IMG/VR virus record: IMGVR_UViG_2687453454_000002
Length of the DNA: 51,775 bases
From: a virus
Taxonomy: Duplodnaviria > Heunggongvirae > Uroviricota > Caudoviricetes
Reading direction: 5' to 3' (one strand)
Every line of letters starts with the position of its first letter. Position 1 is the first letter of the stretch. The notes under the pieces are model-generated. The model was not told where the DNA came from and did no database searches. It was given only the letters and a program-made list of their open reading frames with translations. This document shows, one piece after another, positions 1,659 through 22,124 of the stretch. Position numbers and translations under genes: made by a program.

Positions 1659-2738
1659 TTAAGAATCAGCCTGACTCGGGATCAGTTTTTGCCAGATAAC
1701 TGAAACGTATTTTGCCTGGTAACGGGCGTCATCAAGTGCATTATGGCGCTCACCTTCGAATGGAATAGCCGTTCTGGCATCGAAGTCTATGGCTTTCCCC
1801 AGCTCAACGATTGTGCGTACATCGCGATCGTTGTAGTAACGCCACGGGCAGGGGATCCCCTGCCGTTCGTATGAACGGCGCAAAATCGTGTTGTCGAAGT
1901 TGGCTCCATTTCCCCAAACCTGAACAAAAAATTCACCGGAGTTTTCGTCGATAAATTCTCGCAATTGTAACAGTGCATCATCTAACGGGATTTCATCGGT
2001 CATAATGGCAGATTGCGCTTCGCGTGATTGCTTAAGCCACCATTTAATGGTGTCCCGATCAATGACTCCGCCAGCAGTTTCCAGATCGATAGTCTTACTA
2101 AATTCCGGTCCCATATCTCCGGTTTGCGGATCGAAAAATATTGCACCTATTGAGATGATCGGGGCATCAGGATTTTTTCCCATGGTTTCAAGGTCGATCA
2201 TTAGATGGTCACACGTCCTGCTGGTGGATGTGATTTCGTGATGACCGTTCACCTTAATTGGGTGATCTGCCGTCTCGCCAGTTTCATTATCGCTATTGTG
2301 ATGCTGATTGCCGCCAGTGTTCTCCTTGTGTGGATGTTCAGCGCCTTCCATTTCCTCCGGATCATCTTCCTGAACTTCAACCTGATACTCTTCATCGAAT
2401 GTTTCTTGGTATGTTGCGTCGCCCATCACCGCGCCACAATCAGGGCAGTTGCCGCCGCCGGTCTGACCGCAGGCGGTGCAGACTTTTTCCACTTCCTGTT
2501 GCGCTACTGGTTCAGGCTGTTTCGTTTCTGGCTCGTTTTGTAACGCATTTGGACTGTTTTGTTCCGCTTTTTGGTAGTTCCGTTCCGATTCATGCTGGTT
2601 CTGGTTCACAGAATCGCGGGTCTGGAGCCCCTTAACCCATTTCGGATCATTCGGGTCACTAATCCCTTCAACAAATTCACCACGTGATGCAGCAAGCAAC
2701 TTATCGGCGTCAGGCTGGCTGATATTGGCTGCCTGCAT
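1659..2738 (-). CDS. DnaQ-like (DEDDh) 3'-5' exonuclease with N-terminal Zn-ribbon and acidic linker
   Basis: C-terminal half carries Exo I (LMIDLETMG), Exo II ([11 protein letters not shown]) and Exo III (HNALDDARY) motifs; N-terminal CTACG..CPDCG ribbon followed by an acidic low-complexity stretch. Confidence 0.7.
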
Positions 2739-2987
2739 AATTTTGTTTACTTCGTCAGCGGTAACTTTTATCGGCTCTGGTTGTTCTGAATCTTCAGCGG
2801 TATCTACATTTTGCGGTAAGCCCGTGTATGTGCCATTTTTTCGGGCAAAATATTCTTCTTTTGTGATTTCAGTGGCGCCAGCAGCCAGTGCCTTATCCAG
2901 ACCAGAGAGTTTGTTTGCGCGACCGTATTTTTCTCCGTCCTTATCTGCGAAGAGGAAATAGAACGGCCCCTCACGCTCTACAGATGG

Positions 2988-4130
2988 TTAAGCTTCCGGC
3001 GCGGTTTCATTTTTTGGGATATCAGATACCTCAGTTTCCACTGCATCAGTTTGTGTTTCTGATGACTGGAGAACATCAACAGTGCCCAGGTCTGTTTCTT
3101 CATTCTCAAACACGCCCTTTGTCGTCAGGTATTCGCAGATATATTTGTTCAGTGCTACGGGATCTTTGTGAATGTCGATCGGACGCTCACGGACAAGGCC
3201 AAAAATAGTTTGGCGGTCGTAGCGAAGGGCATCAGGCTGTTTGCGCATTGATGCCGAGATACGCTTCCAGTCTTCGCGGTCGTTGTCGATAACTTCTTTT
3301 TTTGCCCAGCGATGGATGCTGCCGTCAATGTTTCCGGCATCCACATCACTAGGCCAGAGAGCGTAGGCCAGTTCGTCATCCAGTGTTTTCCATGTCTGCT
3401 TGTATTCGCGATGAATGGCAGCAATGACCGGGCTGATTTTTCCTGTTGAATTTTCAGTGTACTGTTGATTGGCTCTGGCGCGGGCGAGATCAACAACAGA
3501 CGTGTATTTTCCGGTTTCCTTGCGTTCACCTTCGCGACGTTTTTTCCAGATGCGCATCTCTGCCTGAATTTCGGGCCATTTAGCACCAGGAATACATTTA
3601 TGCTTAACCCACCCAATGGCGTGCAACTTAAGCTCCGGATACATGGCGTTAACTTCTGGCATTTTCATCAACGCTTCAACGATATGTCCGTCGAATGTTG
3701 CCATGTCTTCCTGCAACAATTCCTGTGCGCTAATAACCATATCAACGGTGATGTTTTCACATGTGTCGAACTTAACCATGACAGCGTTCTGTACTTCAGG
3801 GGCCAGCTTGTCAAAAGTGACGTTCATCGGATCGGATTCAGTCTCAACCGGGACAAAAGAAGCAGACTCCTCATCCCAGCGGTTTTCCTGCATATATTCA
3901 GCATCCCATGAATCGAGGGCAGGGCGGGGTATGCCAGGTTTATCCTCGCAGACAATAAATTTATAAGCGCAGTCCTGAGCAGCCGGATAATGTTCCAGGA
4001 ATTGCCAGTGAAATTTTGCTCGAGCACGGCGTTCGTCGCCAGCTTCAATGGCTGTGGCTACAGCCACAGCGCCTTCTTCCCTTGTTGCCAGTTCGTCAGG
4101 AATAGCGGCGCAAATAAAGACTTTACTCAT
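2988..4130 (-). CDS. ydfE: YdfE-like early-region protein of unknown function (full length)
   Basis: ORF-track entry 2988..4166 begins with TTG; the ATG at 4130 has a GAGG Shine-Dalgarno about 10 nt upstream. Position matches ydfE downstream of ydfD in Qin (recalled gene order). Confidence 0.6.
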   Translation of the reverse strand: MSKVFICAAIPDELATREEGAVAVATAIEAGDERRARAKFHWQFLEHYPAAQDCAYKFIVCEDKPGIPRPALDSWDAEYMQENRWDEESASFVPVETESDPMNVTFDKLAPEVQNAVMVKFDTCENITVDMVISAQELLQEDMATFDGHIVEALMKMPEVNAMYPELKLHAIGWVKHKCIPGAKWPEIQAEMRIWKKRREGERKETGKYTSVVDLARARANQQYTENSTGKISPVIAAIHREYKQTWKTLDDELAYALWPSDVDAGNIDGSIHRWAKKEVIDNDREDWKRISASMRKQPDALRYDRQTIFGLVRERPIDIHKDPVALNKYICEYLTTKGVFENEETDLGTVDVLQSSETQTDAVETEVSDIPKNETAPEA

Positions 4131-4222
4131 TTGTTTTAACCTCATGACAGATTTAAGGATGAACAAATCCCTGCCATTGCTGGCATATAAGAATGAAACC
4201 GGATATTTATTACGGAACTGTT

Positions 4223-4414
4223 TTAAAGACCTGCCGGGATTTCGATATTATCCTGGTGAATAACTTTATCGACCGGGTAACAGTTACCGGGAATTTTCTG
4301 TTCGGTTGCTGCAGTCATACACTCCTGCATTGTCCTGTGAACACTGACTGCAATATCAACTGGCTCTCCGGAAACAAGAAAAACTGTCAGAACAAGCACA
4401 AATGCTGAATTCAT
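4223..4414 (-). CDS. ydfD: YdfD (63 aa), small membrane/lysis-associated protein
   Basis: Internal Met of ORF 4223..4468 gives MNSAFVLVLTVFLVSGEP..., matching K-12 YdfD from memory; ATGA overlap with the dicB stop. Confidence 0.8.
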   Translation of the reverse strand: MNSAFVLVLTVFLVSGEPVDIAVSVHRTMQECMTAATEQKIPGNCYPVDKVIHQDNIEIPAGL

Positions 4415-4599
4415 TGTGCACATCCTTTTGGCATCAGACGTAAACGAGCCAGCATTGAAACAATGCATATTTTATTTAATAGCTCCCGTTCTTGTTTTCT
4501 CTTGTTAATGGCATCTTCAGTAAATACTGGGTTACTGATAGTGACACCAATTTCAAAACAACCTTCAGACGTATTAACGTTTGGTAATAACGTTTTCAT
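4411..4599 (-). CDS. dicB: DicB cell-division inhibitor (62 aa)
   Basis: 62-aa ORF MKTLLPNVNTSEGCFEIGVTISNPVF... matches K-12 DicB as recalled. Confidence 0.9.
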   Translation of the reverse strand: MKTLLPNVNTSEGCFEIGVTISNPVFTEDAINKRKQERELLNKICIVSMLARLRLMPKGCAQ

Positions 4600-4768
4600 T
4601 ATCGCGTCCTCAACAATGAATTTTGTGATGCAGTGCCTGGTGCCTCCAGGTGACGTTAACTAGTTAACAATTAACGCCGGATACAGAGAATCCACCCATA
4701 ACACTGTTTTTGGTTTTAACTGTTCCGCGTGCGCTCAGCCGCATTCACCACATCACAAAATTCACTTT

Positions 4769-4826
4769 AAAAAGGGCGGCAGAGCAGTCACGGAGTAAAA
4801 CTGATACCGCCAAACGTCACCAGAAA
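4769..4826 (-). ncRNA. dicF: DicF small RNA (ftsZ-targeting sRNA) with its intrinsic terminator
   Basis: Reverse complement reads TTTCTGGTGACGTTTGGCGGTATCAGTTTTACTCCGTGACTGCTCTGCCGCCCTTTTT, matching the DicF sequence from memory, including the GC-stem/T-tract end; lies between ydfC and dicB. Confidence 0.85.
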
Positions 4827-5166
4827 ATTGATAACAGAGGGCGTTGCAGCGGGGTTGTCACTTAAGCGTATGGTCAACCTGACAACCCGGTGTCCTCAAC
4901 GGGGAAGGAATAACCCCGCCATACTTACCGCCGCGCCATTTCGCGGGTTGCCACAACCGGAAGCGCACGGTCGACGAAAATTTAACGACAGGCTATCTAT
5001 GAACCAGCTACCTCGCCGTGCGCTTTCGCGTTATGGTCTGACTTTTCAGGGAAATATCCTTTCAGTAAACTGTCAGTTCCGGATGCGCACCCGTGTCCGG
5101 CGCACGCACTCCACCTCACCCGTGGAGAACTCCTTAATTACTAACCTTAGCTTTGTTGATTAGCTA

Positions 5167-5385
5167 CTAACGCGGGTATGTAATCATTCTGGCAATGCTT
5201 AATGCCGCTGCTTTTTCCAGATTGGTGATATCCTGCTCCAGAGCGGACAGATTTTCAGCCTGCTTAGCCCTGGCTTCATTAGCCCATTTCAGATCCTGCG
5301 CTGCATTAATTTTCTGGCGCATCCACTCATAAAGTTCATCATCGGTATAGTCTGGCGCGATGATGACGGGTTCTCGTTTCTGCAT
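5167..5385 (-). CDS. ydfC: YdfC (72 aa)
   Basis: 72-aa ORF MQKREPVIIAPDYTDDELYEWMRQKINAAQDLKWANEARAKQ... matches K-12 YdfC as recalled; position in the dicB operon. Confidence 0.8.
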   Translation of the reverse strand: MQKREPVIIAPDYTDDELYEWMRQKINAAQDLKWANEARAKQAENLSALEQDITNLEKAAALSIARMITYPR

Positions 5386-5414
5386 ACTGATTCCTCGCGG
5401 TGCTGTTTCGCTTA

Positions 5415-5543
5415 TCAGCCGTTAGATTTTGCCGAACTGGAAAGCGCCTGTTTAAACTCACTGAAGCTGAGAGCTTCTTCGCCTTCGGCAAGGCCTTCGA
5501 AGTATTCTTCGTAAGCCTTTTCCATGATTGTGTCGAAATCCAT
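5415..5543 (-). CDS. ydfB: YdfB (42 aa)
   Basis: Hand translation of the minus strand: MDFDTIMEKAYEEYFEGLAEGEEALSFSEFKQALSSSAKSNG*; GGTGAG-type Shine-Dalgarno upstream; below the ORF-track size cut-off. Confidence 0.75.
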   Translation of the reverse strand: MDFDTIMEKAYEEYFEGLAEGEEALSFSEFKQALSSSAKSNG

Positions 5544-5544
5544 A

Positions 5545-5700
5545 TCACTCACCTGAGTTTCTTTCCAGCCAGCGACGGGCACCATTTTCGGTTTTAAACG
5601 TTTTGCTTTTGGTATACGTCATTGCGGTGAACGTGCCGTCCTGGTTTGGAAACACGCCGTACACCAGAGATTCGTTGTTGCCAAGATCGATAGTATCCAT
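5545..5700 (-). CDS. ydfA: YdfA (51 aa)
   Basis: Internal Met of ORF 5545..5778 gives MDTIDLGNNESLVYGVFPNQDGTFTAMTYTKSKTFKTENGARRWLERNSGE; first gene of the dicB operon. Confidence 0.75.
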   Translation of the reverse strand: MDTIDLGNNESLVYGVFPNQDGTFTAMTYTKSKTFKTENGARRWLERNSGE

Positions 5701-5780
5701 GCTGACCTCATTTCCCCTTAACGCTGGGGTAGCGGAACTGTTTGCTGAGAACACCGTGCGGTGTGTTGATGCAAACAAGA

Positions 5781-5794
5781 TTAGCCATGACTAA
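5781..5794. promoter_or_regulatory. Putative DicA operator in the dicB-operon promoter region
   Basis: Imperfect palindrome TTAGCCATGACTAA related to the operator at 6324..6343; on the minus strand it sits between a TTGACC (-35-like) and TAATCT (-10-like) pair upstream of ydfA. Confidence 0.5.
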
Positions 5795-5866
5795 CATATC
5801 GGTCAAGTGATTTTGTATGCTATAGCTAACATAATTGATGTGGTAAAAGATAACTCATTGATGATG

Positions 5867-6274
5867 TTATCTTTTATTTGTCCGCTGACGGGCTTTTAGT
5901 AATTCTTCAAAGAGTTTATTGAAGTTTTTTACTCGAGCTCGCATTTCGGCGAGCTGGGTATCCTGTTCTGATTCTGGCAGTGCATTAAACAGCTCAAGGA
6001 GCTCTAGTTCTTTGGGGGATAAGGCAACTGGCTTCTCAACAGGTGGTGTTGGTTGCTTGTCTTCATCGCCAAATAGAATCCATGTTGGTGAGCATTGCAA
6101 TACTTTGCTGAGGGCAAAAAGGTTCTTCCCTGTAGGTTCACTATCACCCCGTTCCCATTGTGATACAGACACATGGGAGATTTTCAGGGCTTTAGCAAGA
6201 GACCTTTGGGTGTGTTTGAGGTTTTTCCGACGATACCTGATGCGTTCGCCGATAGTTAAATTTTTTGTTTCCAT
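5867..6274 (-). CDS. dicA: DicA repressor (HTH_XRE, 135 aa)
   Basis: 135-aa ORF METKNLTIGERIRYRRKNLKHTQRSLAKALKISHVSVSQWERG... matches K-12 DicA as recalled. Confidence 0.9.
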   Translation of the reverse strand: METKNLTIGERIRYRRKNLKHTQRSLAKALKISHVSVSQWERGDSEPTGKNLFALSKVLQCSPTWILFGDEDKQPTPPVEKPVALSPKELELLELFNALPESEQDTQLAEMRARVKNFNKLFEELLKARQRTNKR

Positions 6275-6323
6275 AGTTAGCTAATGCTAAATCGTATTGA
6301 CTATGTTTTTGTTAACATCTATC

Positions 6324-6343
6324 TTGTTAGTTATGACTAACAA
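6324..6343. promoter_or_regulatory. Putative DicA/DicC operator in the divergent dicA-dicC intergenic region
   Basis: 20-bp near-perfect inverted repeat TTGTTAGTTA/TGACTAACAA (9 of 10 positions paired), 15 bp upstream of the dicC start. Confidence 0.55.
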
Positions 6344-6357
6344 TAAAGGTGTTTTAA

Positions 6358-6588
6358 ATGCTTAAAACTGACGCTCTTTTGTATTTCGGTTCAAAAACAA
6401 AACTTGCACAAGCAGCAGGTATTCGTTTGGCTTCGCTTTATAGCTGGAAAGGGGATTTAGTTCCCGAAGGTCGCGCGATGCGTCTACAGGAGGCATCTGG
6501 CGGGGAGCTTCAGTATGATCCCAAAGTTTATGATGAATATCGTAAGACGAAGCGGGCGGGGCGGTTGAACAATGAAAATCACTCCTGA
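6358..6588 (+). CDS. dicC: DicC (Cro-like regulator, 76 aa)
   Basis: 76-aa ORF MLKTDALLYFGSKTKLAQAAGIRLASLYSWKGDL... matches K-12 DicC as recalled; divergent from dicA. Confidence 0.9.
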   Translation: MLKTDALLYFGSKTKLAQAAGIRLASLYSWKGDLVPEGRAMRLQEASGGELQYDPKVYDEYRKTKRAGRLNNENHS

Positions 6589-7093
6589 ACAGGCTCGTGA
6601 GGCTCTGGATGCCTGGATATGTCGACCAGGAATGACACAGGAGCAGGCGACGATATTAATCACTGAAGCATTCTGGGCTTTGAAAGAGCGCCCGAACATC
6701 GATGTTCAGCGTGTCACATATGAAGGTGGCGCGATTGATCAGCGAGCGCTTGGCGTTAATCGAGTGAAGATATTTGAACGCTGGAAGGCTATCGACACCA
6801 GGGATAAGCGTGAAAAGTTCACGGCGCTAGTGCCTGCAATTATGGAGGCTATCCGGATTAATGATTTCAGGTTGTATCGTGAAATTACTGACGGAAAAAG
6901 CATCACGTGCATGATCGCCGGGTTAAACAAAGAATATGGCGATGTGGTGGAGTCCGGACTGCTTTTTGCTGATCCTGCCGTAGTGGATCGTGAAACTGAC
7001 GAACTTATAGAAAAAGCAATTGCTTTCAAACTTGCGTATCGACAGCAATACCAACAAAAAGCTGGATGGAATTATGAGCCTTCTTTTTGCTGA
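6572..7093 (+). CDS. Hypothetical early-region protein (173 aa)
   Basis: ORF starting at the dicC stop overlap; no motif I can name. The corresponding position in K-12 Qin holds degraded ydfX/ydfW fragments (recalled). Confidence 0.5.
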   Translation: MKITPEQAREALDAWICRPGMTQEQATILITEAFWALKERPNIDVQRVTYEGGAIDQRALGVNRVKIFERWKAIDTRDKREKFTALVPAIMEAIRINDFRLYREITDGKSITCMIAGLNKEYGDVVESGLLFADPAVVDRETDELIEKAIAFKLAYRQQYQQKAGWNYEPSFC

Positions 7094-8039
7094 ACGTCCA
7101 CTGGTTATAAACACGCAGCTGGCAATGAAAATTGGCTTAAACGAAGCCATTGTTTTGCAACAACTGCACTACTGGTTGAGAGATACCAACTCCGGCATGG
7201 AATGTGATGGTGTTCGCTGGATTTATAACACAACGGAACAATGGCTGGAACAGTTCCCATTCTGGTCAGAGTCAACGTTAAAGCGCGCGTTTGCAAGTCT
7301 GAAAACGCTGGGGCTTTTGCGTTGTGAAAAGCTCAATAAATCAAAGCGCGATATGACCAATTTCTACACGATCAACTATGGGAGCGAGCTTTTAGATGGT
7401 GGCAAATTGAGCGAATCCATCGGTTCAAAATGCGCCGCTCCATCAGGTCAAAATGACACGATGGAAGAGGTCAAAATGAAACGCTCCATTGGTTCAAAAC
7501 GACCCAATGTCATCGGGTCAAAATGGCCTGATGATCTTACAGAGAATACAACAGAGATTACTACAGAGAATAAAAACACTTTTCGTCCGGAAGCTTCGCA
7601 ACCGGACCCGCAGACGACTGAACAGGATTTTTTAACCCGGAACTCCGACGCGGTTGTGTTTAGTGCGAAAAAACGCCAGTGGGGTAGCAGGGAGGATTTG
7701 GCGTGTGCGCAGTGGATCTGGGGGCGGATCGTGGGTCTCTACGAACAGGCAGCCAGTGATGATGGCGAGATCATGCGACCAAAAGAGCCTAACTGGACTG
7801 CCTGGGCCAATGACGTGCGCACAATGCGGATGCTGGATGGCAGAAGCCACAGACAAATTTGCGAAATGTTTGGTCGGGTTCAGCGAGATCCATTCTGGGT
7901 AAAAAACATCATGAGCCCGTCAAAGCTCCGCGAAAAATGGGACGAACTGGTCATCCGCCTGGGACGTTCACCTGTACAGCGTTGTGTTAATCATATTTCT
8001 GAACCGGATACAGAAATTCCGCCTGGTTTCAGAGGATAA
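7074..8039 (+). CDS. Putative phage replication-initiation / replisome-organiser protein (HTH N-terminal domain)
   Basis: N-terminus LVINTQLAMKIGLNEAIVLQQLHYWL... resembles phage replication-initiator HTH domains; an iteron array lies inside the gene as in lambda O. The ATG at 7074 is chosen over the overlapping ORF-track start at 7020. Confidence 0.5.
   Translation: MSLLFAERPLVINTQLAMKIGLNEAIVLQQLHYWLRDTNSGMECDGVRWIYNTTEQWLEQFPFWSESTLKRAFASLKTLGLLRCEKLNKSKRDMTNFYTINYGSELLDGGKLSESIGSKCAAPSGQNDTMEEVKMKRSIGSKRPNVIGSKWPDDLTENTTEITTENKNTFRPEASQPDPQTTEQDFLTRNSDAVVFSAKKRQWGSREDLACAQWIWGRIVGLYEQAASDDGEIMRPKEPNWTAWANDVRTMRMLDGRSHRQICEMFGRVQRDPFWVKNIMSPSKLREKWDELVIRLGRSPVQRCVNHISEPDTEIPPGFRG
7416..7525. 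repeat. Iteron array (candidate phage replication origin) inside the initiator-like gene
   Basis: Five copies of CATCGGTTCAAAATG-like 15-18-bp repeats at exact 23-bp spacing (7416, 7439, 7462 degenerate, 7485, 7508), followed by an A/T-rich ACAGAGA(A/T)TA-repeat stretch at 7540..7590. Confidence 0.65.
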
Positions 8040-8079
8040 GTGTTGATTTCAGGTCATGAGGTAATTTTAAGGGGGACTT

Positions 8080-8502
8080 GTGGCAAAAGTTTTTACACAA
8101 GAAGAGCGGGAAAAAATTAAATGGCAGGTGGTGGAACTCGTGCGCCAGAGCGGCCGTGAGACGTTACGGCAACTGGAAGCTAAAACAGGTGCGACTAGAT
8201 ATCTGATGAGCGTTCTTGCCAGAGAGCTGGTAGCCAGTGGCGATGTATACAACTCCGGCTACGGGTTATTCCCCTCTGAACAGGCGCGTAAGGACTGGCA
8301 AAACGCCCGCAAAAAACTCTCGAGGGCAAAGGTGAAGAAACCTGCTGTGGTTGATCCGGACCTTATCTGGTCATCACCTGACGGAGAAATACGTCGCTAC
8401 GACAGTCGCCTAAACATAATCTGTCGCGAGTGCCGGAAGAGCGAAGTTATGCAGCGCATACTGGCTTTCTATCAGGGTAATTTTCAGGACGTGGCGCAGT
8501 GA
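8080..8502 (+). CDS. Hypothetical protein (140 aa) with C-terminal CxxC pair
   Basis: ORF with start overlap to the following methyltransferase-like ORF; function unknown. Confidence 0.5.
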   Translation: MAKVFTQEEREKIKWQVVELVRQSGRETLRQLEAKTGATRYLMSVLARELVASGDVYNSGYGLFPSEQARKDWQNARKKLSRAKVKKPAVVDPDLIWSSPDGEIRRYDSRLNIICRECRKSEVMQRILAFYQGNFQDVAQ

Positions 8503-8855
8503 GTGCACCGGCAACCATTCTTGATATGTGCTGTGGCAGCCGCATGTTCTGGTTCGATAAGTCTGACGAACGGGCGATATTCAGCGATATCAGAAAAGAA
8601 GGATACACATTACGCAATGGGAGACGCTTGATTATCAGCCCTGACATTATCGCAGATTTTCGTGCATTATCATTTGCAGACGCATCTTTTTCGATGGTTG
8701 TATTAGACCCTCCGCATCTTGAGAGTGTTGGTGATAACGCCTGGATGGGAAAGAAATATGGACGGCTGAATAAAGATGCCTGGCGTGATGATTCGCGACA
8801 GAGATTTAAAGAAGCCTTTCGGGTGTTGAGGCCGCACGGCGTTCTGATTTTTTAA
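8499..8855 (+). pseudogene. DNA methyltransferase catalytic-domain fragment (motif I and DPPH motif IV), probably truncated
   Basis: GTG-start 118-aa ORF with LDMCCGS (SAM-binding motif I), VVLDPPH (motif IV) and RVLRPHGVLIF, but it ends with no target-recognition domain and no in-frame continuation downstream. Confidence 0.5.
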
Positions 8856-9374
8856 TGGAATGAAACGCAAATACCGGTAAGCCAGATTCTGGCACTGACA
8901 GACAGAAAACCTGTTATCTGTCAACGAACAGGGAAAAAACGATAAAACCCACTGGATTATTTTTATGAAAGAGGCATCCAGTGAGTAGATTCGTAAGGCT
9001 ACAGATACGTATATCTGAATAATTAAATTCAGTTCTGTAAATAAAATTTAATCCTTAACCGGATGGATTTCTGCACCCTCAGAACATCAGGAGGCCGCCC
9101 GAAAGGGCGGTAGTGAAATGCGAAAGTTCAAAATTATTATTGAAACGGGAATAGCTGGTGGAGATTTTGAGGATGTATTCGAAGTGGACGATGACGCAAC
9201 ACCTGAGGAAATTCATGACGGAGCATAAGAAATTTTCTTTAACTACTGCAATTACTCATACCACGAAATAAAAGACGATGAGGAAGAACAAAGTGGCTGA
9301 TTTTTGTTCAGCTAAATATAACATCAGTTTTGAGTAAGCGTGCAGCAAGAACCGTATTGACGGGGATGTGTTAT

Positions 9375-10910
9375 TCAGTCGGCAGTGCTACGCGCCAGGG
9401 GGAGCAGTTCGCCGACCCGGTTTATCGGCCAGTCGGCTATGACGTCAAGGACATAGCGGAGGTAGCTTTCTGGCTCCACTCCGTTCAGTTTGCACGTCCC
9501 GATCAGGCTGTACAGCAGCGCTCCCCGCTCTCCTCCATGATCCGAACCGAAGAACAGGTAGTTTTTGCGGCCCAGACTGACCATCCGCAACGCATTTTCA
9601 GCGATGTTATTGTCCGCCTCAGCCCAGCCATCATCTGCATAGTACGTCAGCGCCGGCCACTGGTTCAGGGCGTATGCGAACGCTTTCGCCAGTTCTGAGT
9701 GTCGCGACAGGGTTTTCATCTTTTCACGCAGCCAGCTTTCCAGGGATTTCAGCAGCGGTTTCGTTTTCAACTGACGTTCGGCAAGGCGCTGCTCCGCCGT
9801 CATTCCCCTTATCTCTGCCTCGATGGCGTACAGTTCGCCGATCCGTTTCAGCGCTTCCTCCGTCAGGGCTGACGGGGTGCGAACGTGCACATCGTGGATT
9901 TTACGGCGGGCGTGAGCCCAACAGGCGGCTTCCGTTATCCGGCCATCCCGGTACAGCTCGTTGAACCCGGCGTATGCATCCGCCTGCAGTACACCACTGA
10001 ACCCCGCAAGATGGGTCTGCGGATGGATGCCTTTTCTGTCCGGGCTGTAAGCGAACCACACCGCCGGCGCCAGCGTTGACCCGGCGTTACGGTCGTCACG
10101 AACGTAGGTCCATAACCGCCCGGTCTTCGTTTTCTTATTGCCTGGCAACAGCACCGGGACAGGCGTGTCATCAGCATGGAGCTTACCGTCAGTCAGCACA
10201 TAGTCCTGAAGCGCTTCTTCCAGCGGTGACAGTAGCCGGCAGCATGCATCCACCCAGCCCGACAGCAGTGAACGACTCAGCTCCACGCCCTGGCGGCCGT
10301 ACATTTCAGACTGGCGGTACAGCGGGGTGTGCTCTGCATACTTTGAGATCAGCACGCGGGCCAGCAGCCCCGGTCCTGCGATACCCCGCTCGATGGGCCG
10401 TGAAGGCGCGGGGGCCTGCACGATGGCATCGCACTGAGTACAGGCATGCTTTTCACGTACAGTCCGGATAACCCGGAAGGCGCTGCGCATCAGCTCCAGC
10501 TGTTCGGCGGCATCCTCACCCAGATAGCTCAGCGAGCCTCCACATTCCGGGCAGCATGACGCTGCCGGCAGCAGCCGTTTTTCATCGCGGGGGAGTGATT
10601 CGGGGAACGGTTTGCGGGTGCGGGTTTGACGCAGCGGGCGCTGCACGGCCGGGTCGTCAACCCGACCGGTAAGGGTATCACTTTCTTTCTGAAGTGCCTT
10701 CAGGTCAGCTTCCATCTGTGCGATACGACGGGAGACTTTTTCCGAGCGGCTGCCGAAGTTCATCCGGCGCAGCTTATCCAGCTGTGCCTGCAGATGGTCT
10801 ATTTCGCGTTCACGCTCGTTCAGCTTTTCCTGCAGGGCACGGTTCAGCGCCTCCTGTTCGGCAAGGAGACGTTTCAGTGCATTGATATCGTCAGGAAGTG
10901 AGCTGCTCAT
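9375..10910 (-). CDS. tnpC: IS66-family transposase TnpC (511 aa)
   Basis: 511-aa ORF with the leucine-zipper-like N-terminus and overall architecture typical of IS66 TnpC. Confidence 0.85.
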
Positions 10911-10958
10911 ACCGGGTATATTACCAGGCTCATTCAGCGTCGACCAGGATAAAGAGGC

Positions 10959-11306
10959 TTACAACATAGTCAGGGACGTAAGCAGTCTTTTAGGCTGCCG
11001 CCAGTCGATACCTTCCAGCAGCATCGCCAGCTGTGCCGGTGTGAGGAACACTTTGCCATCCCGGGCTGACGGCCAGGCGAAGCGGCCGCGCTCCAGCCGT
11101 TTGGTCAGCAGACACAGTCCATCGCCGGTAGACCAGAGGAGCTTTACCTGACTGCCATTACGCCCACGGAAGATAAAAACGTGACCTGACATCGGATCGT
11201 CTTTCAGCGTCGTCTGCACCTTTGCCGCCAGGCCGTTGAAGCCGTTTCTCATATCGGTGATGCCAGCGACCAGCCAGATCTTTGTCCCTGATGGTAATGG
11301 GATCAA
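10959..11306 (-). CDS. tnpB: IS66-family TnpB (115 aa)
   Basis: 115-aa ORF directly upstream of tnpC, overlapping tnpA by 4 bp; IS66 Orf2 size. Confidence 0.8.
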   Translation of the reverse strand: MIPLPSGTKIWLVAGITDMRNGFNGLAAKVQTTLKDDPMSGHVFIFRGRNGSQVKLLWSTGDGLCLLTKRLERGRFAWPSARDGKVFLTPAQLAMLLEGIDWRQPKRLLTSLTML

Positions 11307-11707
11307 CGTTTGAGCTCCCGTATCAGCAGGTTCAGGATATTTTCGCTGATGGCACCATTCAGACGGAGTGATCCGTGCCGGAACGTCACTTCACAGCTGA
11401 TATTGAGTGATTCAGGTGTCGCAGCAGCTACAGGTTGTGACCGGGGGGAGGTTGTAGGGACAACATCTTCGGCATCAAGTGTTATCGGGAGCAGCTCAGG
11501 CACGTTGTTTTCTGTTGTTGAAGGAGGACGTAGTTTTCCTTCGCGCCAGTACTGGCGCCACTTGAACAGCAAATTATCGTTGATCCCATGCTCACGAGCG
11601 AGTTGCGCTACGGAGATCTCTGGTCGATGCGAGAGTTCAACCATTTTGATTTTGAACTCAACGGGATAATTAGGGCTTTTTTTACGCACTGCGGTTAATG
11701 ATTTCAT
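11303..11707 (-). CDS. tnpA: IS66-family TnpA (134 aa, HTH)
   Basis: 134-aa ORF with HTH-like VAQLAREHGINDNLLFKWRQ; first gene of the IS66 operon. Confidence 0.8.
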   Translation of the reverse strand: MKSLTAVRKKSPNYPVEFKIKMVELSHRPEISVAQLAREHGINDNLLFKWRQYWREGKLRPPSTTENNVPELLPITLDAEDVVPTTSPRSQPVAAATPESLNISCEVTFRHGSLRLNGAISENILNLLIRELKR

Positions 11708-11928
11708 GGATTGCGTCCACCATATTTGGTGTCCACTATTCTCTCAGGAATTTCAGGATCTGCCAGACGGTGCTGAGACGACGCTTACAGTTTTGAAGAG
11801 CGGGATGAACTATTAATGGACTATGGTGAGTTACGCGGTGGAAGTGCTGCTGATGTCGAATCCTAGCGTGATGACTATGAAGCGGGAAAAACTCCGGTCG
11901 AAGCATATTGTGATGAGTGGGGCGATGA

Positions 11929-12216
11929 ATGAGCGAGATTAATTATCAGGAAGGGCATGAAACGGCGGGGCAAGCAAAACCAGTGGCATGGCGATATCGC
12001 TACGTGAAAAAAGGCGTTACGGACTTTCAGGGGAAGTAGTGGTCTGGTGACTGGAAATATGTACCGAAAAAAGAGGATTGTAACGACAGGCCGAACTATC
12101 AAATTCAGGCCTTATTCACTGCCTCACCAGTCCCAGTTACATCAGAAGAACTGGTTAAAGCTGTGCACTTTTATGAACAACTAAAACGCGAAAATCCACC
12201 AACATCCGGCAACTAG
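11929..12216 (+). pseudogene. Hypothetical ORF interrupted by an in-frame amber codon
   Basis: Hand translation: MSEINYQEGHETAGQAKPVAWRYRYVKKGVTDFQGK-TAG(12037..12039)-WSGDWKYVPKKEDCNDRPNYQIQALFTASPVPVTSEELVKAVHFYEQLKRENPPTSGN*; no frame change across the stop. Confidence 0.4.
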
Positions 12217-12470
12217 ATTAATGGATTAACTATGTCGGTTAAACGACCAGCCAACTGAAAAAGCGGAAACCTGATTACAGGTTGCCAGATAAGGCAATGA
12301 GCTACCTGGCGCGGAACGGACTGATAAGTATGGGGAATGTTTTACGATGAACCTTTAGACTAAAGAGTTTGTAACGCTATGTAAGTGATTTTTTCTGGTT
12401 TAGATATTTATATGTCCGGCCAAATTGAGGTGTGTTTAAATGTAATTGCACATTGATTGTAGGAGGAATA

Positions 12471-12650
12471 ATGAAAAACGCATTGCAGTTTTTGTTTGTT
12501 GCGTTCTGGTTGTTCGCATCATGTATGCCCATCATCTTCACAGCAAGGTATATGGAAAAAGTTGATGTTTTGATATTAATATTTGGATATATAAATGCCC
12601 TTTTTTTAGGGGTGTTCATGGCGGTCATGTGCATTGAATACTGGCGGTAA
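12471..12650 (+). CDS. Small hydrophobic membrane protein (59 aa), function unknown
   Basis: ATG preceded by a perfect AGGAGG Shine-Dalgarno (12461..12466); product MKNALQFLFVAFWLFASCMPIIF...LGVFMAVMCIEYWR predicts two transmembrane helices. Confidence 0.5.
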   Translation: MKNALQFLFVAFWLFASCMPIIFTARYMEKVDVLILIFGYINALFLGVFMAVMCIEYWR

Positions 12651-12984
12651 ATACAGCGAACTCCATTGGTTTAGTTGGATATTTACTGTGCTGGACAAAA
12701 ACGGTTTGCGGGGAAATCTTAGTTAAGTAGAATGACTGCGGGTGCTTGAGGCTATCTGCCTCGGGCATGGACACCAACGGCAGATAGAGAAAAGCCCCAG
12801 TTAACATTACGCGTCCTGCAAGACGCTTAACATTAATCTGAGGCCAATTTCATGCTAGACACATGTAGGTTAGCCTCTTACGTGCCGAAAGGCACGGAGA
12901 AGCAGGCTATTGTTAACACCAAGCTGTAATGTCCCCTTTGAACCATTCTAAAATGTCCCCAGACAATTCTCTGGGGGATTTTTC

Positions 12985-14298
12985 ATGATCAAAGAGACTG
13001 TTACGATGAGTCATAAGGAACTCCACCGACTTCAGATTATTCAGGAACAAGCTGCGGCACGCATTGGCATTTCTATTCGGCAGGTTAAACGTCTGGTGCA
13101 ACGGTATAGAAATGAAGGGCCTTCTGGTCTGGTTTCCCACCGACGTGGAAAGCGTCCTAATAATTCCTTTTCTACTGAATTCAGAGCAACAGTAATTTCA
13201 CTCCTCAAAGGCCGTTACGCTGATTTTGGACCTACGTTTGCGTGCGAAAAATTGCGCGAGATACACGGTTTATCTTTATCCGTTGAAACTCTCAGAAAGT
13301 GGATGATAGAAGAGGGGTTATGGCGTGAACGCCGTCGTAAAATTGCCCGTATATATCAACGCCGCATGCGACGACCATCTTACGGTGAACTGATCCAGAT
13401 TGATGGCTCACCTCATGACTGGTTTGAAAATCGAGGCCCCAGATGTACACTGATCGTTTTCATTGATGATGCCACCAGTGCGTTGATGGCGTTGCGTTTT
13501 GTGCCTGCTGAAACAACCCGGGCTTACATGGAAACCCTCCGGGGTTACCTTAATGATCATGGCGTACCGCTCGCTCTCTACTCTGATAGACACAGTATAT
13601 TCAGGGTAAATAACCCAGAGCGGGAAGGTGAGCTGACCCAGTTCACTCGTGCGATAAAGACACTGGGCATCGAGCCAATCCATGCCAACAGCCCGCAGGC
13701 AAAAGGGCGGGTAGAGCGCGCCAATCAGACACTACAGGACAGGCTGGTCAAAGAAATGCGGCTTCAGAATATCAGTGATATTGAAACAGCAAATGCATGG
13801 TTGCCGACCTTTATTGAAGCCTATAACAACCGGTTCGCTACGTCGCCTCGTACTACTGATAATGCTCATCTTGATGTGCACCATTCTGAAGAGGAACTGG
13901 GTTATATCTTCAGCCTACAGGCGAAGCGCGTTCTGTCTAAAAATCTCACTTTCCAGTACAAAAGCAGTGCGTTTCAGGTACGCAGTGAGGGCCGGGGATA
14001 TCGACTTAGGCATTCGGTTGTTACTGTATGCGAGAACTTTGACGGTGAAATTAACGTTCTGTATGACGGGAAAGCGCTGGGCTGGGAAAAGTATGTTGAT
14101 GGCCCGGAGCCTATACCACTGGATGATGAAAAGAGTGTCCATGAACGAGTGGATAATGCCCGTATTGATTTACGCTCAAAATACTATGTTAAACCTAAAG
14201 CTGACCATCCCTGGCTTACGCGCCGAACGCAAAGTCATCAGCAAGTTAAGCCCCCGAAGTTACCTAAAAAGAAGCCTGATCCCGATAAAAAAGATTGA
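12985..14298 (+). CDS. DDE transposase with rve integrase core (IS481/ISNCY-like), 437 aa
   Basis: N-terminal HTH, then DDE-type core motifs (IQIDGSPHDW, LYSDRHSIF, QAKGRVERANQTLQDRL); no IstB-like partner; terminal inverted repeats not resolved. Confidence 0.75.
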   Translation: MIKETVTMSHKELHRLQIIQEQAAARIGISIRQVKRLVQRYRNEGPSGLVSHRRGKRPNNSFSTEFRATVISLLKGRYADFGPTFACEKLREIHGLSLSVETLRKWMIEEGLWRERRRKIARIYQRRMRRPSYGELIQIDGSPHDWFENRGPRCTLIVFIDDATSALMALRFVPAETTRAYMETLRGYLNDHGVPLALYSDRHSIFRVNNPEREGELTQFTRAIKTLGIEPIHANSPQAKGRVERANQTLQDRLVKEMRLQNISDIETANAWLPTFIEAYNNRFATSPRTTDNAHLDVHHSEEELGYIFSLQAKRVLSKNLTFQYKSSAFQVRSEGRGYRLRHSVVTVCENFDGEINVLYDGKALGWEKYVDGPEPIPLDDEKSVHERVDNARIDLRSKYYVKPKADHPWLTRRTQSHQQVKPPKLPKKKPDPDKKD

Positions 14299-14734
14299 AA
14301 CCAAGATCGATTCGGTTGAGTGCATATCCATTCATAGGGTAGATTCTTAAGTCGCGTTTCTGGTGTTCATTTTCGGGTGGTTTGTTACTTGTTTTACCGG
14401 GGATATGCCAGAAACGCGCTGAGTCAGTCTGGGCGGTGCGCGTAATGAGGCGTTATGGTAAATAGCCTATGCTAATGTCCGCTAAGAGCAAGAAGCGGAA
14501 GTTGGCAGTTTTGTGGACTGTCCCCACAAAAGTGACTACAGAAATAGTTGCAATTCATAATTGATCATGGGTTGTCAGTTAAACTCGTGGCGATTTAAAT
14601 AGACTAATTGGGAGTGCGTCCATTACTTATATCTTGTAATGTTAACTATCAGAAATGATACAAAGATAATATGTCTTTAAAGAAAAGGCTGATGGCGAAA
14701 AGTGGCCCGATGAGGGCCACAATACGGCTGTCAC

Positions 14735-15067
14735 TTAGACGTAAATATCAATGGTGCCAGCGGTATTTGTATCGTCTTTTTTCTCTTCTTTTTTATCAGG
14801 CTGAACTGTCGCGTCTTCATTCTTTTTCTCTGCCTGCTGCCTTAACAACTGCTCCAGTTGAGCCCAGAGGCTTTCAATTTGCTTCTGTACCAATGCAGCC
14901 ATTTCTTTTTTCTGCTGTGTCGTCATCCCCTCTTCCGATGAGATTTTCCCAAGCTTTTCAGTCAGCACCTGAATTTGTCTTGTGATTTTGGCTATTTCTG
15001 ATGTTCCTTCCGGGGCGGAGTTGTTTGAAATAACGGTTGAGGTATTTCCCTGAATTGTGACAGACAT
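14735..15067 (-). CDS. flxA: FlxA (110 aa)
   Basis: 110-aa ORF MSVTIQGNTSTVISNNSAPEGTSEIAKITRQIQVLTEKL... matches K-12 FlxA as recalled. Confidence 0.85.
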   Translation of the reverse strand: MSVTIQGNTSTVISNNSAPEGTSEIAKITRQIQVLTEKLGKISSEEGMTTQQKKEMAALVQKQIESLWAQLEQLLRQQAEKKNEDATVQPDKKEEKKDDTNTAGTIDIYV

Positions 15068-15269
15068 AGATTTCTCCTTTTAAAAAAGCACTATCGGCAT
15101 GCACAAAAAAATCTTTAATCGTATTTCTTGTGTCATTAATTGTTTGATGTTCAGATTGTTTTCCTCGCGGGCTGGCGCGCCTCAGAAAGTAAAGCTTGTT
15201 GACAGGGGTAAACGTTCGGCAATAATTTTCTGCCGCATGCGGGTGTTGCATAAAACGTGTTACGTTCCT

Positions 15270-15575
15270 TTATCGACAGGTCAGGTCACCGCTCACCCGC
15301 CGACGAGAAAGCAACACTGACATGCTAAAGCAAAAAATAGATGAATAAGTTGAGTTGTGCATATGTAGCCTGACCGTCACAAAGTATATGGTGTCTGTAC
15401 CAGTAAGATGATGGCCGGACTCTTTAAAAACGAGCTGACCTGCACAATACAGGATGGACTTAGCAATGGCTGCTCCTGGCACAAAGCGGACAGTGATCAC
15501 CGTTCTTACGACTACTTTCTGACTTCCTTCGTGACTTGCCCTAAGCATGTTGTAGTGCGATACTTGTAATGACAT
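15270..15575 (-). CDS. ydfV: YdfV-like protein (101 aa)
   Basis: 101-aa ORF between flxA and relB, the position of ydfV in Qin; name assigned from size and position only. Confidence 0.5.
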   Translation of the reverse strand: MSLQVSHYNMLRASHEGSQKVVVRTVITVRFVPGAAIAKSILYCAGQLVFKESGHHLTGTDTIYFVTVRLHMHNSTYSSIFCFSMSVLLSRRRVSGDLTCR

Positions 15576-15588
15576 TTGTAATTACAAG
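15563..15588. promoter_or_regulatory. relBE operator (relO) inverted repeat
   Basis: CTTGTAATGACATTTGTAATTACAAG palindrome immediately upstream of the relB Shine-Dalgarno and start. Confidence 0.7.
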
Positions 15589-15599
15589 AGGTGTAAGAC

Positions 15600-15839
15600 A
15601 TGGGTAGCATTAACCTGCGTATTGACGATGAACTTAAAGCGCGTTCTTACGCCGCGCTTGAAAAAATGGGTGTAACTCCTTCTGAAGCGCTTCGTCTCAT
15701 GCTCGAGTATATCGCTGACAATGAACGCTTGCCGTTCAAACAGACACTCCTGAGTGATGAAGATGCTGAACTTGTGGAGATAGTGAAAGAACGGCTTCGT
15801 AATCCTAAGCCAGTACGTGTGACGCTGGATGAACTCTGA
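15600..15839 (+). CDS. relB: RelB antitoxin (79 aa)
   Basis: 79-aa ORF MGSINLRIDDELKARSYAALEKMGVTPSEALRLMLEYIADNERLPF... matches K-12 RelB as recalled. Confidence 0.9.
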   Translation: MGSINLRIDDELKARSYAALEKMGVTPSEALRLMLEYIADNERLPFKQTLLSDEDAELVEIVKERLRNPKPVRVTLDEL

Positions 15840-16126
15840 TGGCGTATTTTCTGGATTTTGACGAGCGGGCACTAAAGGAATGGCGAAAGCTGGGCTCGAC
15901 GGTACGTGAACAGTTGAAAAAGAAGCTGGTTGAAGTACTTGAGTCACCCCGGATTGAAGCAAACAAGCTCCGTGGTATGCCTGATTGTTACAAGATTAAG
16001 CTCCGGTCTTCAGGCTATCGCCTTGTATACCAGGTTATAGACGAGAAAGTTGTCGTTTTCGTGATTTCTGTTGGGAAAAGAGAACGCTCGGAAGTATATA
16101 GCGAGGCGGTCAAACGCATTCTCTGA
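15839..16126 (+). CDS. relE: RelE mRNA interferase toxin (95 aa)
   Basis: 95-aa ORF MAYFLDFDERALKEWRKLGSTVREQLKKKLVEVLESPRIEANKLRGMPDCYKIKLRSSGYRLVYQV... matches K-12 RelE; start overlaps the relB stop. Confidence 0.9.
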   Translation: MAYFLDFDERALKEWRKLGSTVREQLKKKLVEVLESPRIEANKLRGMPDCYKIKLRSSGYRLVYQVIDEKVVVFVISVGKRERSEVYSEAVKRIL

Positions 16127-16197
16127 ACCAAAGCATGACATCTCTGTTTCGCACCGAAGGTGACACTTCTGCTTTGCGTTGACAGGAGAAGCAGGCT

Positions 16198-16353
16198 ATG
16201 AAGCAGCAAAAGGCGATGTTAATCGCCCTGATCGTCATCTGTTTAACCGTCATAGTGACGGCACTGGTAACGAGGAAAGACCTCTGCGAGGTACGAATCC
16301 GAACCGGCCAGACGGAGGTCGCTGTCTTCACAGCTTACGAACCTGAGGAGTAA
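16198..16353 (+). CDS. hokD: HokD (RelF) Hok-family membrane toxin (51 aa)
   Basis: Hand translation: MKQQKAMLIALIVICLTVIVTALVTRKDLCEVRIRTGQTEVAVFTAYEPEE*; below the ORF-track size cut-off. Confidence 0.85.
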   Translation: MKQQKAMLIALIVICLTVIVTALVTRKDLCEVRIRTGQTEVAVFTAYEPEE

Positions 16354-16422
16354 GAGACCCGGCGGGGGAGAAATCCCTCGCCACCTCTGATGTGGCAGGC
16401 ATCCTCAACGCACCCGCACTTA

Positions 16423-16447
16423 ACCCGCTTCGGCGGGTTTTTGTTTT
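16423..16447 (+). terminator. Intrinsic terminator after relBE-hokD
   Basis: GC stem CCCGC-TTCG-GCGGG followed by a T-tract (TTTTTGTTTTT). Confidence 0.6.
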
Positions 16448-16569
16448 TATTTTCAACGCGTTTGAAGTTCTGGACGGTGCCGGAATAGAATCAAAAATAC
16501 TTAAGTAGCGCGCAGGGATAAGAGGGATGGTCCCTTAAAGGGGAGAGCTAATTATCCGGAAGGATTCTG

Positions 16570-16821
16570 ATGATGAACATCGAAGAACTGCGTAAAATTT
16601 TTTGTGAAGATGGCCTCTATGCTGTGTGCGTTGAAAATGGAAATCTTGTTAGTCATTACCGCATTATGTGTTTGCGAAAGAATGGGGCTGCGTTAATTAA
16701 TTTTGTGGATGCTCGGGTCACGGACGGATTTATCTTGCGCGAAGGTGAGTTTGTCACTTCATTACAGGCATTGAAAGAGATCGGAATAAAAGCTGGCTTT
16801 TCTGCTTTTTCAGGAGAATAA
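16570..16821 (+). CDS. rem: Rem-like protein (83 aa)
   Basis: 83-aa ORF at the position and size of K-12 rem, downstream of hokD. Confidence 0.6.
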   Translation: MMNIEELRKIFCEDGLYAVCVENGNLVSHYRIMCLRKNGAALINFVDARVTDGFILREGEFVTSLQALKEIGIKAGFSAFSGE

Positions 16822-16887
16822 ACTCATCTACAATCTTGCGCGGGGCTGAACTCCCGCTGAGTAACACCGTGCCACCGGAGAAAACCG

Positions 16888-17166
16888 ATGGCACGCAACG
16901 CAAAATATTACAATTCTGATAATTCGCCCGTTCTTGCCTGCACGCACGGGCGGTATTCTCACGCATTCAAGTCTGAATGGTTCCAGCACCCTCCATGCAC
17001 TGCAGAACAGGCCGAATGGCTGATTCATTCTTACCGCAGGCGCGGGTTCGAGGTTAAGAAAGCTCTCAGTCTCGACTATCGGCACTGGATAATCTCTGTC
17101 AGGCTGCCTTATTCCGAACGCCCACCACGTGCGTCCCGCACTTTCCAGCAACGGATCTGGAGGTAA
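16888..17166 (+). CDS. Hypothetical protein (92 aa)
   Basis: ORF with GGAG about 7 nt upstream of the ATG; its stop abuts the ydfU Shine-Dalgarno and start. Not a gene I recognise. Confidence 0.35.
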   Translation: MARNAKYYNSDNSPVLACTHGRYSHAFKSEWFQHPPCTAEQAEWLIHSYRRRGFEVKKALSLDYRHWIISVRLPYSERPPRASRTFQQRIWR

Positions 17167-17167
17167 C

Positions 17168-18217
17168 GTGCGGGTATTACTTAGACCTGTTCTGGTGCCT
17201 GAGCTTGGGCTGGTGGTCCTTAAGCCGGGCCGTGAATCCATACAGATATTTCATAATCCTCGAGTGCTGGTGGAACCGGAACCAAAAAGCATGCGTAATC
17301 TGCCATCCGGAGTCGTTCCTGCCGTTCGCCAGCCGCTGGCGGAAGACAAAACATTGCTGCCGTTTTTTAGTAACGAACGGGTGATTCGTGCTGCTGGCGG
17401 CGTTGGCGCATTGTCCGACTGGCTATTACGTCATGTTACATCCTGCCAGTGGCCTAATGGCGATTACCATCACACTGAAACAGTCATTCACCGTTATGGT
17501 ACCGGCGCAATGGTGTTGTGCTGGCACTGCGACAACCAACTGCGTGACCAGACATCGGAATCACTGGAGCTGCTTGCTCAACAAAATCTGACAGCATGGG
17601 TGATTGACGTCATCCGTCACGCAATAAGCGGTACGCAGGAGCGGGAATTATCTTTGGCTGAATTATCCTGGTGGGCGGTCTGCAATCAGGTGGTGGATGC
17701 ACTACCTGAGGCTGTATCGCGTCGTTCGCTGGGATTACCAGCGGAAAAAATCTGCTCGGTGTACCGCGAAAGCGACATCGTACCGGGAGAGCAGACCGCC
17801 ACCAGCATATTGAAACAACGCACAAAAAATCTTGCACCGTTGCCTTACGCCCACCAGCAACAAAAATCACCACAGGAAAAGACGGTGGTAAGCATCACCG
17901 TTGATCCAGAGTCTCCGGAATCTTTCATGAAGCTGCCTAAACGTCGCCGCTGGGTTAAGGAGAAATACACACGTTGGGTTAAGACACAGCCGTGTGCTTG
18001 CTGCGGTATGCCAGCCGACGATCCGCATCATCTGATTGGTCACGGGCAGGGCGGAATGGGAACAAAAGCACATGATCTCTTTGTGTTGCCTTTGTGCAGA
18101 AAGCATCACAACGAGCTGCATACGGATACAGTGGCATTTGAAGATAAGTATGGCTCCCAACTGGAGCTGATATTTCGTTTTATCGATCGCGCGCTGACAA
18201 TTGGCGTACTGGCGTAA
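17168..18217 (+). CDS. ydfU: YdfU-like protein (349 aa) with C-terminal Cys/His-rich HNH-like motif
   Basis: GTG start preceded by GGAGG (17157..17161); C-terminus CACCG..HHLIGH..LCRKHHNELH; position and length match K-12 ydfU as recalled. Confidence 0.6.
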   Translation: MRVLLRPVLVPELGLVVLKPGRESIQIFHNPRVLVEPEPKSMRNLPSGVVPAVRQPLAEDKTLLPFFSNERVIRAAGGVGALSDWLLRHVTSCQWPNGDYHHTETVIHRYGTGAMVLCWHCDNQLRDQTSESLELLAQQNLTAWVIDVIRHAISGTQERELSLAELSWWAVCNQVVDALPEAVSRRSLGLPAEKICSVYRESDIVPGEQTATSILKQRTKNLAPLPYAHQQQKSPQEKTVVSITVDPESPESFMKLPKRRRWVKEKYTRWVKTQPCACCGMPADDPHHLIGHGQGGMGTKAHDLFVLPLCRKHHNELHTDTVAFEDKYGSQLELIFRFIDRALTIGVLA

Positions 18218-21921: not shown

Positions 21922-22124
21922 GGTAGACAATATTACAAACCATATTCACTTTAGATGCCCGTGTTGTCATGGTTCCCAGTATAGAACATCATCTTTTGAT
22001 GTTTCTGACATGAATCCTTTCGGGGCAAAATGTATCTTTTGTAAATCAATGATGATTACATTTGATAATATTTCACAATACTTAAATGCCAGCCGTCTGT
22101 CGTTGGATTTAAAAAAGTGAAAAT

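Follow-up and report, generated by a model that had tools for sequence, protein, structure and literature searches.

The window analysed here, a 51,775-nucleotide stretch of viral DNA (Caudoviricetes; IMG/VR record IMGVR_UViG_2687453454_000002), carries at the locus of interest a gene for a DUF977/LygF protein and, overlapping its end, a 118-codon open reading frame (ORF) with methyltransferase motifs (Table 1). Just upstream lies a replication-initiation gene of the O-like type, in agreement with the initial annotation, which had placed the ORF after the replication gene. The start of the O-like gene follows the RefSeq annotation of the identical locus in Escherichia coli ATCC 8739 (CDS at L001 4995-5960); the mechanically called ORF opens at TTG 7020. 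A scan of 7900-9400 for promoters and terminators gave nothing of note, and no restriction endonuclease adjoins the methyltransferase, its neighbours being the O-like gene, the DUF977 gene, pseudogenes and an IS element.

Table 1. Features of the methyltransferase locus and of the surrounding prophage, by position in the window.
Feature	Position	Strand	Evidence or remark
DicF sRNA	4774-4825	-	Rfam, above gathering score
Replication-initiation O-like gene	7074-8039	+	phrog_391 'replication initiation O-like', E = 1.3e-91
DUF977/LygF gene, intact, 140 aa, GTG start	8080-8502	+	PF06163, phrog_142, RefSeq WP_001151262.1
Whole methyltransferase gene, very probably a pseudogene, ancestrally 162 codons and a stop, two lesions	8499-8988	+	DNA alignment, repaired translation
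118-codon ORF, still translatable, GTG start	8499-8855	+	RefSeq WP_001310834.1 'class I SAM-dependent methyltransferase'
Motif I LDMCCGS, SAM-binding loop after strand 1	8520-8540	+	residues 8-14
Motif IV DPPH	8706-8717	+	residues 70-73
Lesion 1, AAA to TAA, Lys119 to stop	8853-8855	+	AAA in intact copies
Untranslated original-frame remnant encoding WNETQIPVSQILALTDRKPVICQRT	8856-8930	+	aligns with intact homologues; phrog_954 to residue 147
Lesion 2, GG to GGG, +1 insertion	8931-8933	+	gap column in DNA alignment A3
C-terminal remnant, readable in the shifted frame only, TAG at 8986-8988	8934-8988	+	DNA alignment, repaired translation
DUF7167 gene with internal stop, pseudogene	~9118-9300		ATCC 8739 annotation (L001 7039-7221)
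IS66 target duplication, 8 bp, AGTTTTGA	9327-9334 and 11789-11796		flanks the element
IS66-family element, ends GTAAGCG...CGCTTAC	9335-11788	-	insertion relative to ATCC 8739 and PhiR42_1
Hypothetical gene, frameshifted and with internal stop, pseudogene	~11930-12350		beyond IS66; ATCC 8739 annotation (L001 7387-7808)
sok antitoxin RNA, beside hokD	12740-12911	+	Rfam, above gathering score
cspA-type 5'UTR thermoregulator	21563-21948	+	Rfam, above gathering score
IS009	48235-48433	+	Rfam, above gathering score

The 140-residue neighbour, initially described as an unknown protein, in fact matches DUF977 over the full length of the profile (1-134 of 134; 101.5 bits against a cutoff of 22.1, E = 5.1e-29), as well as phrog_142 (E = 1.6e-47), for which PHROGs gives the name 'Ren-like exclusion protein'. 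In phage records the protein is called LygF, and the gene is intact. Literature searches for LygF mainly returned unrelated papers on goose-type lysozymes, and none that linked DUF977 with the methyltransferase family. The GTG start of the 118-codon ORF overlaps the DUF977 stop by four bases (GTGA, 8499-8502), and an AGGA can be read nine bases 5' of it, so that the translational coupling layout proposed for this gene pair is indeed found. Since the same four-base overlap joins members of the methyltransferase family to unrelated upstream genes elsewhere, the partner encoding a DnaD-like loader in Listeria phage A118 and being a DUF2737 or hypothetical gene in the P22-like prophages, this coupling is not specific to the DUF977 pair and is ancestral to the methyltransferase family.

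Both motifs first noticed in the 118-residue product, LDMCCGS and then DPPH, are present and in that order. Among 105 diverse members of the family, L8, D9, C12 and G13 of motif I are conserved in at least 90%, as are D70 and H73 of the second motif, in which P71 and P72 are invariant; the family motifs LDxCCG, D30, DF (D53-F54) and DPPH all lie within the 118-residue part. For the intact E. coli homologue P0006 (161 aa), an AlphaFold model (pLDDT 94.5, pTM 0.89), built with the 105-sequence diverse alignment after a run with 77 close homologues gave a pLDDT of 51.7 and was set aside, places motif I at strand 7-9 and DPPH directly after strand 64-69. The profile phrog_954 ('DNA methyltransferase') matches the locus with E = 4.7e-73, and 6662 homologues of the 118-residue ORF with E <= 1e-5 were found in a large protein collection, from which it follows that the ORF is the remnant of a gene and not a chance reading frame. 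The phrog_954 alignment, in which residues 5-147 correspond to profile positions 52-194 of 229, depends on reading through the stop codon to cover that range.

It had been stated that no reading frame continues the 118-codon ORF, yet the same frame runs on for 29 sense codons past the TAA at 8853-8855 and does so in family sequence. Its read-through translation is ...GVLIF, the stop, WNETQIPVSQILALTDRKPVICQRTGKKR and a second stop, and 3' of the TAA it encodes the conserved family sequence WNETQIPVSQILALTD.KPVI.QRTGK. At that stretch the intact homologues read ...GVLIFKWNETQIPVSQILALTD.KPVI.QRTGKNDKTHWIIFMKE...., and the two align residue for residue. There is no start codon by which the piece after the TAA would be an ORF of its own. 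Aligned at the DNA level with E. coli copies undamaged at both sites, the gene shows two lesions: the change of AAA to TAA at 8853, and the change of GG to GGG at 8931-8933, where the extra G falls in a column that is a gap in the three copies without the insertion. The former replaces Lys119, a residue conserved in 99% of the 105 diverse members, while the latter shifts the frame ahead of the conserved C-terminal strand KTHWIIF(MK). When one G is removed and the stop is read through, the result is a 162-residue protein that ends in ...GKNDKTHWIIFMKEASSE, followed by TAG at 8986-8988. This repaired length falls within the 155-170 residues of the intact homologues, in which a core of about 153 residues (query residues 6-158) is uninterrupted, unlike in the window copy.

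What then has been lost? The alignment with full-length prophage methyltransferases, which had been proposed as a way of locating the truncation, puts it at the stop in codon 119. As the intact homologues end about 40 residues past this stop, without any further domain, what is missing is no target-recognition domain but the final quarter of the catalytic fold itself. The model of P0006 has strands at 7-9, 26-30, 34-37, 43-46, 64-69, 110-121, 138-144 and 150-156, and helices at 82-87, 95-109 and 127-131. By this model, the stop would fall inside the core strand 110-121, and the last helix and two strands, or 27% of the fold, would be gone. The remark that the ORF ends without a target-recognition domain is thus true of the 118-residue product and at the same time misleading, as the intact members of 155-170 residues have none either. 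Likewise, the idea of an unusually compact enzyme fits the intact family, at about 160 residues, but not the 118-residue product.

The remaining sequence shows further signs of decay. Among 77 close homologues, 103 columns are conserved to 90% or more; the window copy deviates at 10 of these, where the median for members is two, and its deviations include five at invariant columns: D40N, P58S, F69L (adjoining DPPH), R76S and G102R. The allele of E. coli 13E0767 carries both lesions in a Qin context, as the window copy does, but has kept the ancestral R76 and L99, which means that R76S and L99S arose after inactivation. Other alleles of the 118-residue form carry M16I, K85E and R108W; none of these three positions varies in the sets of 16 and 77 close homologues, nor does R108 in the 105 diverse members. 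Compared with intact copies in E. coli and enterobacterial prophages (P0006; WP_253169362.1 of strain 20AR1039), the repaired window protein is 82-87% identical over its whole length and shares with them LDMCCGS, DPPH, FKWNE and KTHWIIF, the position in the early operon and the four-base upstream overlap. It differs from these copies in the stop at K119, the additional G and about eight further changes of conserved residues. An independent loss is seen in O157:H7 strain E32511 (L007 2501-2974), where W95 has changed from TGG to TAG in a different prophage remnant, beside yfdR-like genes. The early-region methyltransferase is evidently dispensable, and has been lost repeatedly in E. coli prophages.

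The lesions are inherited and widely shared. The 881 bases of the locus are 100% identical in ATCC 8739, in E. coli W, in many others and in phage PhiR42_1 from ECOR13. Of 5426 complete E. coli genomes, 472 have an exact match to a 61-mer that includes the TAA, in each as a single chromosomal copy; for a 61-mer with the GGG run the count is 375. As exact 61-mers recur in hundreds of complete genomes, the lesions are real and inherited rather than errors of sequencing. For the 13E0767 allele (EC767_RS12630, L005 1546-1990), which has 98.8% DNA identity to the window allele, PGAP gives the label 'SAM-dependent methyltransferase; frameshifted; internal stop' and draws it across the equivalent of window positions 8544-8988. 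PGAP is inconsistent here: the window allele stands as an intact 118-residue protein, and the 98.8%-identical 13E0767 allele, with the same two lesions, as a pseudogene. A separate curiosity is P0001 (133 aa; ENA, from one contig of 1490 bp), in which codon 119 is GAA (Glu) and the frameshift is kept (...GVLIFEWNETQ...QRTGKKR); the cause may be an error of sequencing or a second-site change at the stop codon. Furthermore, the two genes that follow the methyltransferase in the identical ATCC 8739 locus are likewise annotated as pseudogenes (Table 1), which indicates that the segment between DUF977 and ydfW/flxA is decaying.

We therefore consider 8499-8988 to be, very probably, a pseudogene, derived from a gene for a compact class I SAM-dependent methyltransferase (about 160 residues) and situated in the early rightward operon of a lambdoid E. 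coli prophage of the Qin type. The option of a decayed methylase in the initial annotation was well chosen, as borne out by the nonsense mutation and frameshift, the changed conserved residues and the PGAP pseudogene flag on a near-identical allele. The grounds given for it were not: no target-recognition domain was lost in the decay, and the frame does run on beyond the stop. Between them, the change of Lys119 from AAA to TAA and the additional G at 8931-8933 would inactivate the gene, while ribosomes coupled from the DUF977 gene may still yield an N-terminal fragment of 118 residues. Such a fragment would retain the SAM-binding loop and DPPH, and would end in core strand 5, short of the final helix and both C-terminal strands. 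Judging by the model, it should not be able to fold into an active enzyme. The function would thus have been lost in this prophage, with the remnant presumably drifting neutrally. Three things count against this reading: the exact window allele is called an intact 118-residue protein by PGAP (WP_001310834.1); the start, the upstream coupling and both catalytic motifs are preserved; and the persistence of the allele in many lineages could reflect retention rather than hitch-hiking with the prophage.

Might the fragment then be kept for a role other than catalysis, for instance as a SAM-binding protein or as a partner of the DUF977 protein? The preserved GTGA coupling to an intact and 100% conserved DUF977 gene, and the frequency of the allele (472 genomes), would speak for such a role. 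However, the coupling is ancestral to the family, as in phage A118 and the P22-like prophages, and vertical inheritance of the whole Qin prophage explains the allele frequency. In addition, the alleles vary at invariant residues, and SAM binding by half of a Rossmann sheet is unlikely, so that we regard this role as improbable. Still less probable is that the 118-residue product is itself a functional, ultra-compact methyltransferase. It does keep motif I, the acidic D30, D53-F54 and DPPH, and RefSeq lists it as an intact protein. Against this, the homologues of about 118 residues among the matches listed all represent the same nonsense allele (95-99% identity), and other short or partial family matches have unrelated junk tails of the frameshift type without any common alternative C-terminus; moreover, the modelled stop would lie inside strand 110-121 and remove two more strands, and invariant residues have been substituted. 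A natural module boundary at residue 118 was also considered, many database representatives matching only to about residues 111-120, and was rejected as their tails are mutually unrelated and frameshift-like.

Recoding, by which a readthrough of the TAA and a ribosomal frameshift at the G/A run would together restore the full-length enzyme, would account for a sequence 3' of the TAA that is still near the family consensus, and lesion 2 does lie in a slippery-looking run, GGGAAAAAA. Yet two rare events per translation would be needed, and the window stop is followed by T; TAA followed by T is a strong termination context in E. coli, and generally the most efficient one. Neither feature is found in intact relatives, which gives no hint of a programmed signal, and conserved residues are being lost. 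We hold recoding to be extremely improbable. That the stop and the frameshift are errors of sequencing or assembly might be suspected from the homopolymer run at lesion 2, but hundreds of complete genomes that were each sequenced independently, as well as a phage record deposited independently, show the identical sequence, which effectively refutes this. The locus is, in our reading, an ordinary pseudogene in a well-known cryptic prophage, already covered by RefSeq annotation.

Our best guess for the ancestral, intact enzyme is that it was probably an N-methyltransferase acting on exocyclic amino groups of a nucleic acid, based on the DPPH motif and a weak structural resemblance to Trm11, TrmM, M.TaqI and PrmC. 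In enzymes with a (D/N/S)PP(Y/F/W/H) tetrapeptide after strand 4, this motif is typical of methylation of exocyclic amino groups. The terms 'DNA', 'anti-restriction' and 'gamma-class' are, for this family, annotation labels rather than established properties, DNA being the commonly annotated substrate. The order of motif I before motif IV fits the gamma class, but it is the default for all class I methyltransferases and therefore does not discriminate. Members of the gamma class (M.TaqI; N6_Mtase/Eco57I-type) have a C-terminal target-recognition domain that is absent from the intact family members; Pfam gave no gamma-class match, and M.TaqI was found only with a TM-score of 0.49 and E = 7e-5, among many unrelated class I enzymes. 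As to the beta class, 27 of the 105 family members match PF01555 (N6_N4_Mtase) weakly over profile positions 2-65 (DPPY to RVLKPGG), all with scores below the gathering cutoff (best seen 21.4 vs 26.7 bits), and the window ORF itself does not match this profile. Furthermore, the beta class has the permuted order of motif IV before motif I, whereas the family has I before IV.

Trm11 (archaeal, m2G10 in tRNA), TrmM, M.TaqI and PrmC/HemK share with the family the class I Rossmann fold and the order of motif I before motif IV, a likeness that is generic at TM-scores of 0.46-0.59 and 16-19% identity. All four are larger and, unlike the family, have extra substrate-binding domains; none of the Pfam models of their families was matched by the window ORF or its relatives. 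A Foldseek search with the P0006 model found no close solved structure, the best matches (TM-scores 0.56-0.59) including phosphatidylethanolamine N-methyltransferase, nucleomethylin, Trm11, Bud23, TrmM, M.TaqI, PrmC and KMT9. Single-sequence and profile searches of the PDB gave nothing better than PH0226 (E = 2e-5), and the viral structure library held only one close model. In Pfam, only the generic models Methyltransf_11 and Methyltransf_25 catch the family; for the 118-residue ORF, the former match is borderline (21.6 bits, cutoff 21.2; residues 97-118 only) and neutral as to substrate. NCBIfam has no matching family. YfdM of E. coli K-12, a 'putative methyltransferase' of the CPS-53 prophage, was set aside as a relative, as it has no similarity by BLASTP, nor has YfdT. 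The predicted m6A methylase cds16 of pneumococcal phage SpSL1, for which no adenine methylation was found (PMC6755750), is likewise unrelated, being a DPPY protein of beta-class-like type.

The intact family is both small and widespread. An exhaustive search with P0006 returned 2008 clusters at 50% identity with E <= 1e-3, and 234 with E <= 1e-30; these share the core of about 153 residues, some with N- or C-terminal extensions. Deposited phage genomes contain the family in 256 cases, typically at about 50% identity to the E. coli protein, and among them are Listeria phage A118, Streptococcus phage T12, pneumococcal prophages and phages of Enterococcus, Staphylococcus, Gordonia, Vibrio, Acinetobacter and Porphyromonas. 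The temperate phages concerned have hosts in the Proteobacteria, Firmicutes, Actinobacteria and Bacteroidetes, and in several of the contexts examined the gene is coupled to replication or to an early operon. A case in point is ORF50 of phage A118 (154 aa; L015 3001-3465), a member of the same compact family with 53% identity to the E. coli protein, which follows directly on the DnaD-like loader gene with a four-base overlap. Unlike the window copy, it is intact and belongs to a phage of a Gram-positive host. It is annotated as 'DNA methyltransferase, methylates cytosine residues in DNA', for which we found no experimental basis in the searchable literature; literature searches likewise returned no paper on methyltransferases of the phrog_954 type. 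An enterobacterial subgroup of 248 residues (P0007, P0014, P0076 and others) has a conserved C-terminal extension of about 85 residues, reading ...ELE.LLLVD.PETVWPAEV.MV....HHQRRLKHHINRMWLEKMPVP..., to which Pfam gave no match, and Pfam scans of the longer family members for informative fusions showed nothing consistent.

The intact relatives, whose core of about 153 residues contains DPPH but no target-recognition domain, and whose predicted fold lacks several of the usual Rossmann helices on its N-terminal side, may be the smallest known nucleic-acid amino-methyltransferases, a suggestion that we put forward tentatively, thinking it rather doubtful. Such enzymes could have no sequence specificity, or could owe their targeting to a partner or to replication intermediates. 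If this were true, the window copy would represent a natural knockout of an enzyme of that type. The wider interest lies with these intact relatives, a very small and very widespread family that could merit a methylome experiment, and not with the present locus, which is one more decayed gene of the cryptic Qin prophage and of little biological weight. In practice, WP_001310834.1 is best treated as a truncated pseudogene product and left out when active methyltransferases are tallied for methylome or REBASE-style inventories.

As to the prophage itself, window positions 2086-9333 and 11788-17398 share 99.5-99.8% identity with the Qin prophage of ATCC 8739 in the region that carries the genes dicB, ydfA-D, dicA, dicC, YdaT-like, O-like, DUF977 and methyltransferase, then relBE and hokD. 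The early region is also near-identical, over 2080-9333 and 11788-17423, to the 48.7-kb 'Escherichia phage PhiR42_1'. The IS66-family element that interrupts it has three ORFs, for proteins of the HTH_Tnp_1 and TnpB_IS66 types and a DDE_Tnp_IS66 transposase, and lies about 480 bp 3' of the methyltransferase ORF, which it leaves untouched. The four Rfam matches (Table 1) are consistent with a Qin-type prophage. Long ORFs 3' of about 24.5 kb suggest by their sizes a full late, structural gene set, which the Qin remnant of K-12, unlike this prophage, presumably lacks.
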